Assembly: GCA_017502165.1 (NCBI GenBank)
Contig: JAFVVO010000025.1
Coordinates: forward strand, 8,854 to 72,853
Length of the DNA: 64,000 bases
Reading direction: 5' to 3'
DNA from: Clostridia bacterium
Lineage (GTDB): Bacteria > Bacillota > Clostridia > Christensenellales > QALW01
The stretch's first letter is position 1; each line of letters begins with the position of its first letter. This document shows positions 3,998 to 19,596 of this stretch, piece by piece. The translations under genes were made by a program, and so were the position numbers. The notes below the pieces were generated by a model. The model saw nothing but the letters and a program-made list of their open reading frames with translations, searched no databases and was not told the origin of the DNA.

Positions 3998-4084
3998 GCC
4001 GGTGTGTTGGAACTGGCAGACGAGACGGACTCAAAATCCGTTGTCAGCGATGGCGTGTGGGTTCGAGTCCCACCACCGGCACCA
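3998..4084 (+). tRNA. tRNA-Leu (anticodon CAA), type II with long variable arm
   Basis: Acceptor GCCGGTG/CACCGGC, anticodon stem ACGGA/TCCGT with loop CTCAAAA, long variable arm, T-arm GTGGGTTCGAGTCCCAC, CCA encoded. Confidence 0.9.
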
Positions 4085-4243
4085 CGTCGCCGCAAGCTAA
4101 AAAAGGCTTGCGGCATTTTTTTGTCAAAAAAACCGCAATGCCTTTGGCGCTGCGTCTCCTTATACGCAAAAAGTCTCGCTCGGCTCATCTGCTCGGTTGC
4201 AAGCGCCCTCACGACGATTCACTGTCGCTACCAACTTTTTGCG
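4085..4243 (+). repeat. Module X: conserved non-coding module, repeated in inverted orientation at 19129-19288
   Basis: Roughly 90 percent identity by eye to the reverse complement of 19129-19288. It begins with a terminator hairpin and contains a 10-bp stem (CGCAAAAAGT with ACTTTTTGCG) enclosing about 57 nt. Confidence 0.8.
4089..4122 (+). terminator. Intrinsic terminator after tRNA-Leu(CAA)
   Basis: GCCGCAAGC ... GCTTGCGGC hairpin followed by a T7 run. Confidence 0.7.
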
Positions 4244-4254
4244 TTAGCGTGTTA

Positions 4255-4282
4255 AGCAGACAAGTAGTCTGCTCTTTTTTTA
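4255..4282 (+). terminator. Intrinsic terminator-like hairpin between modules X and Y
   Basis: AGCAGAC aagta GTCTGCT followed by CTTTTTTT. Confidence 0.55.
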
Positions 4283-4301
4283 TTTAAGAACGGAGAGAAA
4301 A

Positions 4302-4551
4302 AACGGGGTCCCCGAAAAGCAGTATTGCTTTTTGGGGAAAAGGAAGCACAATGGAGCGATTTAGCTTTCTTGTAAAACAAGAAAGCGCTTAAGCGTAATT
4401 TGTGCTGACGCGGGACTCGAAGCCTGAGAGGGAGCAAAGCGTTAAGAAAACGATTGATAATCGTTTTCAGCTTTGCTGTGCGAGACGGGTACTGCGAGCA
4501 TTACGGAGTAAGCGGAGCGGTCGTTGAGCAGGTAAGGCGCGAAGCGACTGT
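4302..4551 (+). ncRNA. Module Y: candidate structured RNA or repeat element of unknown class, second copy at 19306-19560 (minus strand)
   Basis: About 250 nt and about 88 percent identical to the other copy. It has a 12-bp hairpin (4310-4337), a 9-bp hairpin GCTTTCTTG/CAAGAAAGC and nested stems AGCAAAGC/GCTTTGCT and AAAACGAT/ATCGTTTT. Differences between the copies keep the pairing: G-U versus A-U at 4314, C-G versus U-A at 4418/4426, and G-U versus G-C at 4519/4549. Confidence 0.5.
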
Positions 4552-4569
4552 GTCCCACCACCGGCACCA
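4552..4569 (+). repeat. Exact 18-nt duplicate of the 3' end of tRNA-Leu(CAA) (equals 4067-4084)
   Basis: GTCCCACCACCGGCACCA occurs at 4067-4084 (T-loop end to CCA) and again at 4552-4569. Confidence 0.95.
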
Positions 4570-4602
4570 AAAAATCGACAGGTTTCGACCTGTCGATTTT
4601 TT
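4570..4602 (+). terminator. Intrinsic terminator after the duplicated tRNA 3' end
   Basis: ATCGACAGG tttcga CCTGTCGAT followed by a T6 run. Confidence 0.65.
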
Positions 4603-4604
4603 AT

Positions 4605-4780
4605 CCATTGCGAAAGCAATGGTATATCATCACGCGCAAGCGTGCATCTCATCACCGAAGGTGTATATCATCAGCCGCAGGCTGCATTTCTTTTCGCAAT
4701 GATGATATGCAAAACTTCGTTTTGATGATATGCAATTCCTGCGGAATTGATGATATACACGGCTTTCGCCGTGATTTATG
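4605..4780 (+). other. Array of seven short hairpins separated by an inverted 9-11 nt arm motif (TATATCATCA / TGATGATAT)
   Basis: Hairpins lie at 4605-4622 (GAAA loop), 4631-4644 (GCAA loop), 4653-4663, 4672-4684, 4710-4724, 4733-4749 and 4759-4772. Arms lie at 4622-4632, 4645-4654 and 4664-4673 (one sense) and 4700-4709, 4723-4732 and 4748-4758 (reverse complement). Confidence 0.6.
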
Positions 4781-4833: not shown

Positions 4834-4864
4834 CAAAAAAACAGACTAAGGGTCTGTTTTTTGT
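4834..4864. terminator. Bidirectional terminator-like hairpin, similar to the one at 19099-19120
   Basis: A-run, CAGAC taagg GTCTG, T-run. Nearly the same sequence (AACAAAAAAACAGACcaacGGTCTG) occurs at 19093-19118. Confidence 0.5.
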
Positions 4865-4869
4865 TATTT

Positions 4870-4922
4870 TGGGGGAAGGAAGGGACTTGACCACAAACCG
4901 TTAAAAAAACGATTGATAATCA
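4870..4922. repeat. Degenerate third fragment: reverse-complement tRNA 3'-half-like sequence plus a partial module-Y core
   Basis: TGGGGGAAGGAAGGGACTTGACC resembles the reverse complement of the tRNA-Leu(AAG) 3' end (TGGTGCGAATGAAGGGACTTGAACC). CGTTAAAAAAACGATTGATAATC repeats the Y core seen at 4440-4466. Confidence 0.45.
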
Positions 4923-10334: not shown

Positions 10335-10535
10335 CAAAATCGGCGCTCGCGATTATTTTCTTAAGGCTGACACAAGAAAAGTATTTCGACTCTATGCATA
10401 TCCGTTCAGGATGCGTTTTTCGCCTTCTCGGAATTTTCCAATGGCTTGTCCCTTGCTTGCGGCGCAAGGTAGAAAAACGCGTTTAGCATATCACGGCGAC
10501 GGGCTCGTGCAGGATTTTCACCTGCTTCCGTTTCT
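10335..10535 (-). promoter_or_regulatory. Cobalamin (B12) riboswitch
   Basis: The minus strand reads GGAAGCAGGTGAAAATCCTGCACGAGCCCGTCGCCGTGA ... AGCCATTGGAAAATTCCGAGAAGGCG. This matches the conserved GGTGAAAATCC / CCCGCCACTGT core and the B12-box region. It lies in the 5' leader of 10293..9347. Confidence 0.75.
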
Positions 10536-10575
10536 TGTGCAAAAATAGTTTATCATATTTGCTTTTTTAATGCAA

Positions 10576-10599
10576 CAAAAAACCCCGCTTTTGCGGGGC
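10576..10599 (-). terminator. Intrinsic terminator of the isomerase gene
   Basis: CCCCGCaaaaGCGGGG followed by a T-run on the minus strand. Confidence 0.7.
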
Positions 10600-19305: not shown

Positions 19306-19560
19306 ACGGTCGCTACGCGCCCTAACTGCTCAACGACCGCTCCGCTTACTTCGTAATGCTCGCAGTACCCGTTTCGCACAGCAAAGCTAAAAACGATTAT
19401 CAATCGTTTTATTAACGCTTTGCTCCCACTTTGGCTTCAAGTCCCGCGTCAGCACAAATTTCGCTCATACGCTTTCTTGAAAACAAGAAAGCTAAATCAC
19501 TCCATTGTGCTTCCTTTTCCCCAAAAAGCAATTCTGCTTTTTGGGGACCCCGTTTATTTT
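19306..19560 (-). ncRNA. Module Y' (second copy of the candidate structured element)
   Basis: The reverse complement aligns with 4302-4551. The stems are preserved. Confidence 0.5.
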
Positions 19561-19565
19561 AAATA

Positions 19566-19596
19566 ACAAAAAACCGAGCTCTTTTGAACTCGGTTT
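19566..19596 (-). terminator. Intrinsic terminator after tRNA-Leu(AAG)
   Basis: The minus strand reads AACCGAGttcaaaagaGCTCGGTT followed by TTTTTG. Confidence 0.65.

Follow-up and report, generated by a model that had tools for sequence, protein, structure and literature searches.

What is a chain of short hairpins, each different from the others yet separated by one and the same short box, doing directly behind a tRNA terminator, and is it to be read as RNA, as single-stranded DNA or as a set of sites on the double helix? The question arises from positions 4,605 to 4,780 of the window, by which we mean the whole 64 kb stretch of Clostridia DNA that was analysed. The original prediction described the hairpins, the boxes and their order, proposed that the arms pair into a rod of three helices, and offered double-stranded DNA sites as another reading. 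All the features that it listed were found in place (Table 1), including the complementarity of the arms (the outer pair matches at 11/11 positions, the middle pair at 9/10 and the inner pair, counting one G-T, at 10/10), and we agree that no ORF explains them.

Anatomy of the array and its flanks

The window array consists of two mirror-image runs of short hairpins with the same 9-base box between hairpins, that is, of two inverted half-arrays with three units apiece. The own strand of each half is the one whose 5′ to 3′ direction leads toward the centre. In each unit, a box precedes a GC-rich hairpin whose sequence is arbitrary apart from its base pairing. Read on its own strand, the box is A/U-rich, 7–9 nt long and G-free, and it fits ATNWCAY, the window version being ATATCAT(CA). 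In the 64 kb window, TGATGATAT occurs as five exact copies and one with a single mismatch; all six lie within 4624-4756, three per strand, and each pair of neighbours encloses a different hairpin. Exact matches are thus confined to the array (5/5), and when one mismatch is allowed the window holds 26 matches, against 10.7 ± 3.1 in shuffles. The pattern is not due to chance. When the entire 64 kb was scanned for hairpin chains, no second array appeared.

Table 1. Features of the array and its surroundings, in window positions
Feature	Position	Strand	Details
tRNA-Leu(CAA)	3998..4084	+	ARAGORN; Rfam tRNA 50.7 bits
tRNA-Leu 3′-end copy	4552..4569	+	GTCCCACCACCGGCACCA; 18 nt, exact repeat of 4067-4084
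Bidirectional intrinsic terminator	4569..4602	.	A6, 9-bp stem, T6; perfect 15-nt inverted repeat
H1 (first hairpin, hpT′)	4605-4622	+	CCATTGC-GAAA-GCAATGG
tRNA-proximal half	4624..4684	+	Boxes alternate with H2, H3, H4; own sense is the + strand
Proximal boxes	4624, 4646, 4665	+	ATATCATCA, ATCTCATCA and ATATCATCA, respectively
H2	4631-4644	+	Hairpin of tRNA-proximal half
H3	4653-4663	+	Hairpin of tRNA-proximal half
H4	4672-4684	+	Hairpin of tRNA-proximal half
Centre	4685..4701	+	Degenerate box ATTTCTTTT, then TTTCGCAATG at 4692-4701
Distal half	4700..4773	-	Boxes alternate with H5, H6, H7; own sense is the - strand
Distal boxes	4700, 4723, 4748		+ strand reads TGATGATAT, - strand reads ATATCATCA
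H5	4710-4724	-	Hairpin of distal half
H6	4733-4749	-	Hairpin of distal half
H7	4758-4773	-	Hairpin of distal half
Distal end of element	4772..4779	+	TGATTTAT; three Logan contigs begin at 4779
Second bidirectional terminator	4836..4862	.	Found on both strands; separates array from MATE gene side

The 18-nt repeat of the tRNA-Leu end would be expected 0.01 times by chance, and at other loci intact tRNA ends stand at the matching position. The copy therefore appears to mark the original tRNA end, which now lies a 467-bp insertion away from the gene. The array's terminator originally ended tRNA-Leu, and the element originally stood behind the 3′ end of that gene. This terminator is canonical in form and travels with the array throughout the family; for instance, near-identical terminators are found beside different upstream genes at L098 and L305.

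The window array lies between two bidirectional terminators, and the search for a promoter belonging to it found none on either strand of the window. Elsewhere, an extended -10 promoter serving the next gene follows directly on the far end of the array in 24/52 flanks, the motif TGnTAnnnT being placed 17–18 nt downstream of the distal end in these 24 of the 52 unique flanks. A conserved motif past the distal end was considered as the array's own promoter and rejected, as the extended -10 faces outward. TTGATT at the distal end of other copies forms the -35 of this outward promoter; the promoter is not intact in the window. No empty orthologous site was found: the flanking MATE and DUF975 proteins occur solely in near-identical contigs, and the nearest MATE homologues are at most 65% identical and show no synteny.

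Distribution of the family

The same architecture, with hairpins that retain their positional identity, was observed at about 40 of 119 genome (MAG) loci, and it recurs at no fewer than 120 metagenome loci or contigs. Its hosts are uncultured, Oscillospirales-like gut Clostridia (Acutalibacteraceae, Oscillospiraceae and Christensenellaceae). The array nearly always adjoins a bidirectional intrinsic terminator, which lies within a few nucleotides of the array end at 22 of 27 MAG loci. Among about 100 metagenome copies, 55 or more have the end of a same-sense tRNA 27–43 nt (median 32) ahead of the array. Fourteen tRNA isotypes are found in this position; at MAG loci the array terminator also stands behind tmRNA and 5S rRNA genes, and some arrays follow ordinary genes. 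The genes upstream of the non-tRNA copies are diverse and, as judged by ORF C-termini only, without obvious bias toward high expression. No conserved partner gene was found among the neighbours, as the distal ones are diverse and a PF05635 gene is present at only 5 loci.

Arrays of 3+4, 3+2 and 2+3 boxes are common, as are those with a single half. Several box types may coexist in one genome and even in one array (L012, L050, L106 and L114), and ATGAAAT, ATGAGAT and ATGATAT boxes are mixed within the single array of L106. Across families, the box type always matches between the halves (ATC/GAT, GTA/TAC and TTC/GAA). Single-half arrays and those whose units all face one way are oriented with the local genes (L048, L050, L058, L106, L001 and L161), the L048 array having a T-box terminator on one side and the leuS RBS on the other, and arrays made only of the proximal half (L029, L060 and L044) have the same sense as their tRNA. 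At L001, the beginning of the array adjoins a REP-like element that starts with GTAG.

One array was found in the 64 kb window and a single locus per contig of 550–690 kb; about 9 of 40 loci have a second array within 8 kb, and in one MAG two different tRNA operons are each followed by an array (L014 and L089). Contigs assembled from the window species are interrupted at 4624, about 4677 and 4779, and the two full-length copies from this species are co-linear. A phage or prophage element was rejected, as hairpin grammar was seen in 1 of the 120 viral-contig box-pair matches listed (L161). Likewise, an integrated element with att sites or target duplications was discarded because words of at least 10 nt shared between the flanks are at chance level. 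A literature search with the box sequence as a word returned primers only.

Relation to Gut-1

The array is very probably one copy of a dispersed, conserved and modular element of gut Oscillospirales-like Clostridia, which can be regarded as an expanded Gut-1 family (RF01706). The closest known family is Gut-1, of which the array is a mirror-doubled relative. The original prediction, which did not recognise the architecture, was nearly right in this, as Gut-1 is little described; what it missed is that the array is a mirror-doubled variant of that orphan RNA motif. On where Gut-1 occurs, Weinberg et al. stated in 2010 no more than its presence in human gut sequences, and they rated it as certainly an RNA (PMC2864571). 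Rfam classes it as an sRNA gene, and the 2010 paper was the only one found in the literature.

The window matches the Gut-1 model at 32.3 bits (E = 4e-4; - strand, 4619-4694), below the Rfam gathering cut-off of 50 bits; the other half of the array gave no match, and 0 of 9 other loci with ATATCAT-type arrays searched at the threshold passed it. Both halves, each taken in the sense that gives a (U)GAUGAUAU box, show at least three short hairpins with a RUGAWAU box. Above-cut-off Gut-1 copies are found on the same contigs as ATATCAT arrays (L001, L012, L343 and L363), and the seeds BAAZ01025322, BAAZ01000095 and BABA01021652 have the tRNA–terminator–array layout with an inverted second half, as does the window. 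Other Rfam assignments were rejected. A C/D-box snoRNA or K-turn scored 20–21 bits against cut-offs of 43–55 and lacked a CUGA partner for UGAUGA, and weak miRNA and CRISPR-DR60 matches lay far below their cut-offs.

Folding, covariation and strand asymmetry

The fold of the array is much more stable than that of shuffles, with z = -5.9 on the + strand and z = -6.5 on the - strand. Across loci, the local hairpins pair in 89.8% of cells (74.4% in shuffles) and contain 85 compensatory cells, whereas shuffles average 24.7 and none of 500 reached as many. Recurrence in genomes and metagenomes, z-scores near -6 and hairpin covariation show the element to be real, conserved and structured. By contrast, the arm pairs do not covary: 91.5% of the cells in the arm-arm helices pair and shuffles give 92.1%, the covariation score is the same as the mean of the shuffles, and the arms match only because the boxes are invariant. 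Additionally, the frequent box variants ATCTCAT and ATGAGAT find compensation in no more than about 2 of 17 arrays (hand tally), and the flanking Y/R positions (columns 69/187 and 97/145) change without compensation. The rod of the original prediction is, consequently, upheld in part. As RNA, the full-length + strand would fold in this way (ideal rod -60.9 kcal/mol; MFE -72.1; hairpins alone -46.3), but the arm helices show no covariation, arrays with unequal halves or one half are common, and RNAalifold prefers a pairing between the centre and the first hairpin, helix X, that excludes the rod.

In helix X, the centre at 4692-4701 pairs with the 5′ arm and loop of H1 (4606-4615; 10/10 complementary). 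Across 15 loci, 99.3% of its cells pair (77% in shuffles), compensatory changes are seen in 6 of the 10 pairs, and the complementarity averages 10.6 nt within a locus versus 4.8 nt between classes. The H1 hairpin itself pairs in 93% of cells across loci, and the 10 bp of helix X can close the tRNA-proximal half in competition with it.

The two halves also differ in the strand on which their wobbles fall. The left half has 6 G.T and no A.C and the right half 2 G.T and 6 A.C (Fisher p = 0.009); read on the strand where its box is ATATCAT, the distal half shows 6 G.T, no A.C and GNA loops. In an independent set, the proximal half in the sense of the tRNA has 21 G.T versus 6 A.C and loops GAA, GTA or GCA. 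All own-sense arrays pooled give 18 G.T and 6 A.C, and their stems are about 98% Watson-Crick (1157 Watson-Crick pairs, 18 G.T). Whether the arrangement is left-to-right or right-to-left, the own-sense features of one half recur in mirror image on the other strand. The own-sense loops are GNA or GNNA (GAA 54, GCA 21, GTA 18, GTTA 10 and GTCA 8); GNA, GTTA and GTCA are hyper-stable loops of DNA minihairpins, unlike the GNRA or UNCG loops of RNA. As most loops are GNA triloops and lie on opposite strands in the two halves, the argument that GNRA tetraloops favour RNA is weak.

Two further observations concern the boxes. Their spacing is continuous between 19 and 31 bp, without helical phasing, and the hairpin of a unit is followed by (Y)ATATCAT and not by a T-run, so the units do not have the form of intrinsic terminators. 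Only H4, which directly precedes CATTTCTTTT and is terminator-like, and H7 pass a simple terminator scan.

Possible roles of the array

Our best guess, which should be taken as tentative, is that the array is a strand-symmetric barrier or insulator against polymerases that read through the terminator. This draws on anatomy, conservation, covariation, strand asymmetry and position, from which we infer an effect on transcription. The array would be a strand-symmetric punctuation placed where a heavily transcribed gene for a stable RNA ends, and a polymerase escaping the terminator, from either side, would copy a half-array in its functional sense first. The nascent strand would fold hairpin after hairpin, followed each time by a weak A/U-rich hybrid with the conserved box, and the units might then act as serial sites of pausing, termination or entry into decay, possibly aided by a box-reading factor. 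In that way, the stable-RNA gene would be shielded from the neighbouring promoter and the promoter from the gene. Such a role is consistent with the position at stable-RNA terminators, the outward promoters at the far end and the lack of a detectable promoter of the array itself. It also fits the covariation of hairpins as single-strand folds, the mirror-image strand features, the co-orientation of one-half or one-direction arrays with local genes and the design of the unit, a GC-rich hairpin with an A/U-rich tract immediately after. However, the boxes are not U-tracts, the array genomes use canonical T6–8 terminators, and box identity is stricter than a weak hybrid would need. The predominance of GNA loops, with GTTA and GTCA among the tetraloops, and the unusually few stem wobbles for an RNA family also tell against the barrier, a terminator would come at a cost in the 5′ UTR that contains the L048 copy, and helix X has no role in the model. 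Moreover, the terminator-side half has the opposite sense in the Gut-1 seeds, at L114 (3514-3700) and at L031 (7530-7700), so that the rule of the functional sense being copied first fails across the superfamily.

Some of the features that trouble the barrier point to a close rival, which we consider possible but rather doubtful: that the array is a dispersed extragenic palindromic element which, like REP/BIME or REPIN sequences, folds as single-stranded DNA. The own-sense hairpins would form on exposed strands (the lagging-strand template or a transposition intermediate), a putative enzyme specific for hairpin and box, such as a RAYT-like HUH/Y1 transposase, would recognise or mobilise them, and the inverted doublet would provide one functional array per strand, as in REPINs. 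Mainly C-GNA-G triloops plus GNNA tetraloops that include GTTA and GTCA, nearly wobble-free stems and mirrored strand features in both arrangements are what would be expected of it. In addition, homologous arrays with their co-travelling terminators lie behind at least 14 tRNA isotypes, tmRNA, 5S rRNA and ordinary genes, and copies found behind so many different genes must have moved; the MAG with two arrays behind different tRNA operons, the breaks in the window-species assemblies and the GTAG-starting element at L001 are also in favour of such an element. As the one-direction arrays are co-oriented with genes, they probably lie on the lagging-strand template. Against such an element stand a copy number that looks low, the lack of flanking direct repeats and of a recognisable terminal cleavage motif, the absence of a transposase or RAYT-like gene among the array neighbours, the fact that the hairpins within an array all differ, as they do not in REP clusters, and the tight link to stable-RNA terminators, which is left unexplained.

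The remaining explanations are less probable. A single structured small RNA of about 180–220 nt acting in trans, as a rod or as helix X with hairpins, would combine the rod of the original prediction with the Rfam class of Gut-1, and we regard it as unlikely. The favourable energy of the rod on the full-length strand (-60.9 to -72.1 versus -46.3 kcal/mol, z near -6), a - strand reading that ends in a strong terminator, as is typical of sRNAs, the constant match in box type between the halves and the covariation of hairpins and helix X speak for it, as does the rating by Weinberg et al. (PMC2864571). Nonetheless, the uncompensated arms, box variants and Y/R positions, the frequency of half-only and unequal arrays, and the mutual exclusion of helix X and the rod argue against a single transcript, which would not predict wobbles and loop types on opposite strands either; besides, terminators flank the array and no promoter was found on either strand. 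Still less likely are protein sites on double-stranded DNA, be they iterons, a roadblock to transcription or replication, or arm-type recombinase sites left over from a tRNA-targeting integrative element. The boxes are indeed near-invariant over family-level divergence while the hairpins vary, their inverted sets of 3+3 recall the P and P′ arm sites of a lambda-type attP, tRNA and tmRNA 3′ ends are classical integration targets, and an 18-nt duplication of the tRNA end accompanies the window array. However, this proposal, of which iterons and arm-type sites were put forward originally, is weakened by the continuous, unphased spacing and by the strong hairpin covariation, for which it has no explanation, and several box types occur per genome or even per array. 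Furthermore, integrase or Rep genes are absent nearby, no consistent att-like repeats surround the arrays, and there was 1 true array among the 120 viral-contig pattern matches listed. Finally, the inverted repeat of 10–13 bp (centre versus first hairpin) that flanks the proximal half could make the array an invertible DNA switch, as flipping that half would give a grammatically perfect one-direction array of seven units. The repeat covaries, the flipped state rebuilds a complete junction hairpin (derived on paper from the sequence) and contigs break inside the array, but the flipped-junction pattern had no metagenome matches, versus at least 120 for the unflipped one, none of the fetched loci is flipped and the two full-length copies of the window species are co-linear. 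Consequently, an inverton is largely refuted, and we give it hardly any credence.

Significance

Taken together, the observations might describe an unrecognised class of strand-symmetric “box–hairpin” punctuation modules, a joint reading that we hold as possible rather than probable. Each module could join a bidirectional terminator to a mirrored hairpin array and, in many copies, to an outward promoter. Such modules could have spread, in uncultured gut Clostridia, exactly behind the CCA end of many different tRNA genes, as well as behind tmRNA and 5S rRNA genes. The halves could work single-stranded in their own sense, gated by a covarying, bistable choice between the first hairpin and helix X, and Gut-1, an orphan since 2010, could be one half of such a module.

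Gut-1 has had neither organism nor context since 2010, and the window locus and its relatives now supply hosts (Acutalibacteraceae, Oscillospiraceae and Christensenellaceae MAGs), a fixed address directly behind the terminators of stable-RNA genes, and a full architecture of two inverted halves with a covarying closing helix. In view of the strand asymmetry, the sRNA model published for one strand is incomplete. Should the array be a bidirectional barrier or insulator, it would offer a compact natural part with which to isolate transcription units, and a new answer to read-through from the strongest promoters of the cell; should it be a single-stranded DNA element, Firmicutes would have a REP-like system whose recognition logic is new, the linker being conserved and the hairpins free.

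Comparison with known systems

The attP arm-type sites of lambda-like phages and plasmid iterons are sets of two or three identical short sites in inverted orientation, and the array resembles them in this and in its place beside a tRNA 3′ end. It differs from them in that it has no integrase gene or att repeats, its sites are unphased with covarying hairpins between them, and both of its “arms” lie on one side of the tRNA end. Boxes bound by a protein on double-stranded DNA as a roadblock would recall the Sal-box/TTF-I arrays behind eukaryotic rRNA genes.

Stable-RNA operons may also be followed by tandem or compound terminators, such as rrnB T1-T2 of E. coli. Like these, the array stands directly behind the primary tRNA or rRNA terminator, is bidirectional and repeats GC-rich hairpins with an A/U-rich tract after each, whereas its boxes are conserved in sequence and are not U-tracts, its termination activity is putative, and the mirror design with strand-specific loops is peculiar to it. 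REP/BIME sequences and REPINs of enterobacteria and Pseudomonas are extragenic palindromes found after genes or terminators, as inverted doublets and mosaics. Both they and the array mirror strand-specific features in the halves of a doublet and occupy non-orthologous sites; by contrast, the array conserves its linker box, the palindromes within one array all differ, its apparent copy number is low, no RAYT-like gene was seen among its neighbours and no GTAG-type cleavage motif is defined for it.

The closest resemblance is to Gut-1. The window box is AUGAUAU and that of Gut-1 is GUGAAAU or GUGAUAU, the terminator-side half has the opposite sense in the Gut-1 seed sequences, and the mirrored (dyad) architecture, the link to stable-RNA terminators, helix X and the host taxa were undescribed for Gut-1. 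In common, however, are the habitat in gut Clostridia and the succession of at least three GC-rich hairpins with loops of 3–4 nt and a conserved (G/A)UGA(A/U)AU box between them. In the published seed alignment of Gut-1, members lie directly behind a tRNA 3′ end and terminator, and the unmodelled flank holds an inverted AUAUCAC half and a centre complementary to the first hairpin.

Anatomy of the array and its surroundings

The alternating array that had been claimed from the sequence is indeed present at 4605-4780, where seven different hairpins (H1-H7) are interspersed with six boxes, conserved 9-mers with a 7-mer core. The exact 9-mer occurs five times in the 64 kb window, every copy within the array, and allowing one mismatch gives 26 matches in the window vs 10.7 +/- 3.1 in shuffles; a hairpin-chain scan of the same 64 kb found no second array. 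On both strands the fold is far more stable than that of shuffled sequence (z = -5.9 and -6.5, one per strand). Promoter prediction around the array returned none on either strand, and the outward extended -10 promoter seen at other copies is absent from the window.

The 18-nt copy of the old tRNA-Leu(CAA) 3' end that precedes the first terminator is explained by a separate event: a 467-bp segment (4085-4551) separates the tRNA from it. This segment is paralogous to the region directly 3' of the window's other tRNA-Leu, tRNA-Leu(AAG) (19380-19590, - strand), pieces of it are found again at 4861-4921, and it has the appearance of a tRNA-targeting insertion that has decayed, or of a second family of repeats.

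Independent assemblies of the window's species start or end at about 4624, 4677 and 4779, within the array or at its edge, suggesting that assemblers are misled here by repeats or by variation among strains; one contig (L244) covers the entire locus and differs by one SNP, at 4709. Unrelated to the array, a cobalamin riboswitch lies at 10360-10583 on the - strand (40.3 bits vs a cut-off of 31.5).

Features of the window array and of related loci (L-numbers are other MAG, metagenome or viral contig loci)
Feature	Position or locus	Strand or direction	Remark
tRNA-Leu(CAA) gene	3998-4084		source of the 18-nt 3'-end copy preceding the terminator at 4569-4602
Terminator of the 467-bp segment itself	4089-4120
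T-arm-like piece in the 467-bp segment	4412-4424	inverted
Perfect bidirectional terminator	4569-4602	both	array starts 3 nt beyond
Helix X	4606-4615 with 4692-4701		inverted repeat
ATATCATCA-type boxes	4624, 4646 (as ATCTCATCA), 4665	+	alternate with hairpins
TGATGATAT boxes (three)	4700, 4723, 4748	+	after the ATATCATCA-type set
Second bidirectional terminator	4836-4862	both	closes the array in on its far side
PF05635 genes	L031 7112-7462; L035 5568-5786; L055 6495-6593; L067 6523-6867; L077 461-805
AAAATCCTCGGTTTTCGACCAGTTCTTTTTCGGACACGAATGAC carriers	L280, L288, L293, L301, L313, L343, L345, L363, L364; L114		just upstream of the terminator
Gene-co-oriented arrays	L048, L050, L058, L106, L001, L161		L050 ahead of rsgA

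A family with fixed grammar and polarity

The window array is a member of a conserved family. Searching one genome per species for pairs of boxes separated by 8-24 nt gave 119 loci, about 40 of which hold true arrays, the rest being chance or coding repeats. The true arrays all lie in MAGs that carry the label Clostridia, Eubacteriales, Acutalibacteraceae, Oscillospiraceae, Christensenellaceae or Ruminococcus, except for one Lachnospiraceae and one Spirochaetales. A metagenome scan with the terminator-proximal end as pattern gave at least 120 matches. All relatives of the array are MAG or metagenome contigs, and some lineages may be common to the sequence sets.

In the sense of the window's - strand, the consensus opens with AAATCA and hairpin 0, followed by three units of Y ATATCAT and a hairpin; the centre is a half-hairpin with a degenerate box; three units of a hairpin and ATGATAT R come next, and a terminal hairpin CCA...TGG, ATAAAAAA and the terminator close the order. 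The form with 3+3 boxes is the commonest (43 of about 100 complete copies among the metagenome matches listed), while 3+4, 3+2 and 2+3 forms and the proximal half (that on the tRNA and terminator side) alone were also seen. The box consensus, ATNWCAY, is strongly conserved across the family, and each hairpin keeps its positional identity across genomes, hairpin 1, for instance, being CAATTYC-GNA-GRAATTG. The hairpin stems vary through compensatory substitutions: 89.8% of cells are paired vs 74.4% in shuffles, with 85 double-change cells vs 24.7, and none of 500 shuffles equalled either value.

Some loci are more elaborate. Two mirrored arrays stand back to back around one bidirectional terminator, without a tRNA, in L298 (about 1915-2013) and L317; three arrays of three different box types lie within 2 kb in L114 (1650-3720); and a single array in L050 (5990-6200) has 10 hairpins in one direction, its box changing midway from ATGAAAT to TCGATAT.

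Position behind tRNA genes and terminators

Arrays of the MAG loci lie no more than about 50 nt from a tmRNA or from the tRNA that closes an operon (His, Glu, Ser, Tyr, Leu, Trp, Gly, Pro and Arg among them), always with the same end facing the tRNA. Similarly, a same-sense tRNA ends 27-43 nt ahead of the array in at least 55 of about 100 metagenome copies with sufficient upstream sequence, fourteen isotypes being represented; many other copies follow tRNA 3' ends that ARAGORN missed, one follows a 5S rRNA, and further copies sit behind ordinary genes. The tRNA-terminator junction is exactly CCA|AAAAA, and terminator-plus-array blocks lie directly behind the CCA of many different tRNAs. A terminator adjoins the array in 22 of 27 MAG loci, and recognisable terminator families move with arrays to different upstream genes; that of the window is found again in L098 and in L305, where it is tied to a different tRNA. 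On the distal side, TGnTAnnnT occurs 17-18 nt past TTGATT in 24 of 52 unique flanks and is the predicted outward extended -10 promoter of the next gene.

Several other sequences accompany the arrays. A small gene for a four-helix-bundle protein (PF05635, 23S rRNA intervening sequence protein) adjoins the array in five loci with differing tRNAs, in one of which (L031) a mirrored array flanks it on either side, the two differing in box type. At least 10 loci carry, immediately ahead of the terminator and array, a conserved stretch of some 45 nt, AAAATCCTCGGTTTTCGACCAGTTCTTTTTCGGACACGAATGAC; it had no Rfam match at cut-off in the four searched (L280, L288, L343, L363) and could represent the 3' terminus of an RNA gene not yet described. 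In L001 (4850-5200), a REP-like palindrome starting GTAG (GTAGGGGTCGACGTCCCCGACGACCCGTTATTA) occurs in three copies, each adjoining an ATCA-hairpin array start, and an above-cut-off copy of the orphan RNA motif Gut-1 lies 50 nt upstream.

Competing folds

The original prediction proposed a rod in which three box-box helices carry the hairpins at four-way junctions. This fold is the thermodynamic optimum for a single full-length strand (as RNA, -72.1 kcal/mol for the MFE and -60.9 for the ideal rod vs -46.3 for the hairpins by themselves), but its arms do not covary: 91.5% of cells are paired vs 92.1% in shuffles, the covariation score (0.047) equals the shuffle mean, and variable positions mostly break pairing. 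Pairing of the arms follows solely from the invariance of the boxes. Two common variants, ATCTCAT and ATGAGAT, are tied to position within each half, and by hand tally only about 2 of 17 arrays compensate for them.

RNAalifold instead picks helix X, which joins the centre (4685-4701) to the loop and 3' arm of the terminal hairpin. Here 99.3% of cells are paired vs 77.2% in shuffles, double changes occur in 28 cells vs 8.0, and covariation scores 0.543 vs 0.140, values attained by none of 500 shuffles; slid controls paired at most 42% of cells. Complementarity between centre and first hairpin averages 10.6 nt within a locus vs 4.8 nt between hairpin classes. Helix X competes with H1 and is incompatible with the rod, and as RNA the two states are nearly equal (-48.5 vs -46.3 kcal/mol).

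Strand asymmetry and candidate functions

Loops on the ATATCAT strand are mostly GNA or GNNA (GAA 54, GCA 21, GTA 18, GGA 7, GTTA 10, GCAA 10, GTCA 8). Stem pairs are 98% Watson-Crick, wobbles being nearly absent; on the ATATCAT strand, which is opposite between the halves, there are 18 G.T vs 6 A.C. The left half has 6 G.T and no A.C and the right half 2 G.T and 6 A.C (Fisher p = 0.009, on small counts), and the proximal half of an independent metagenome set, in tRNA sense, has 21 G.T and 6 A.C, also small counts. This mirror pattern points to two inverted modules, each with its own orientation. Half-only or all-one-direction arrays also occur, oriented as the local genes are, which fits an RNA-sense role and a lagging-strand-template role equally well. 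A leucine T-box riboswitch (Rfam, 119 bits), ending in its terminator, lies on one side of the half-array at L048 4310-4673 and the leuS ribosome-binding site on the other, and the half-array is therefore within a defined 5' UTR.

Tentatively, we regard the array as a putative strand-symmetric punctuation or barrier element, which would act on polymerases running past the terminator from one side or the other; its position and its co-orientation with genes point more towards transcription. The scarce wobbles point more towards DNA, as do the GNA, GTTA and GTCA loops, and a REPIN-like dispersed element that folds as ssDNA is a possibility to which we give somewhat less credence. A single rod-shaped sRNA would have the energetic optimum on its side, but the mirror pattern is not what a single transcript predicts, and we think it improbable.

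Binding sites for a protein on dsDNA are more doubtful still, as the boxes are unphased (spacing 19-31 bp), box types are mixed and the hairpins covary. Helix X, as an inverted repeat on either side of the proximal half, prompted a test for inversion: the metagenome patterns gave no flipped junction vs at least 120 unflipped ones, none was flipped among the loci analysed, and an inverton is very improbable.

Relation to Gut-1

Gut-1 (RF01706) is the sole Rfam signal for the window array, covering the proximal half on the - strand with 32.3 bits; as the Rfam cut-off is 50 bits, the element falls below it and by that threshold is not a Gut-1 member. Above-cut-off Gut-1 copies share contigs with these arrays (L001, L012, L343, L363). 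Arrays with other boxes follow the same grammar (ATTTCAT/ATGAAAT, ATATCAC/GTGATAT, ATTACAT/ATGTAAT, TCGATAT); types are sometimes mixed within an array, those of the two halves always match, and both arrangements relative to the terminator are found.

[quoted passage not shown] 2010, PMC2864571). Its published seed alignment runs from a tRNA 3' end through a terminator to three GUGAUAU-hairpin units, and the unmodelled flank holds an inverted AUAUCAC half and a centre with complementarity to the first hairpin (PMC2864571). Gut-1 and the window array share the box-hairpin grammar. Given this common seed layout and grammar, the window element is a new, oppositely oriented and mirror-doubled variant of a Gut-1-like kind.
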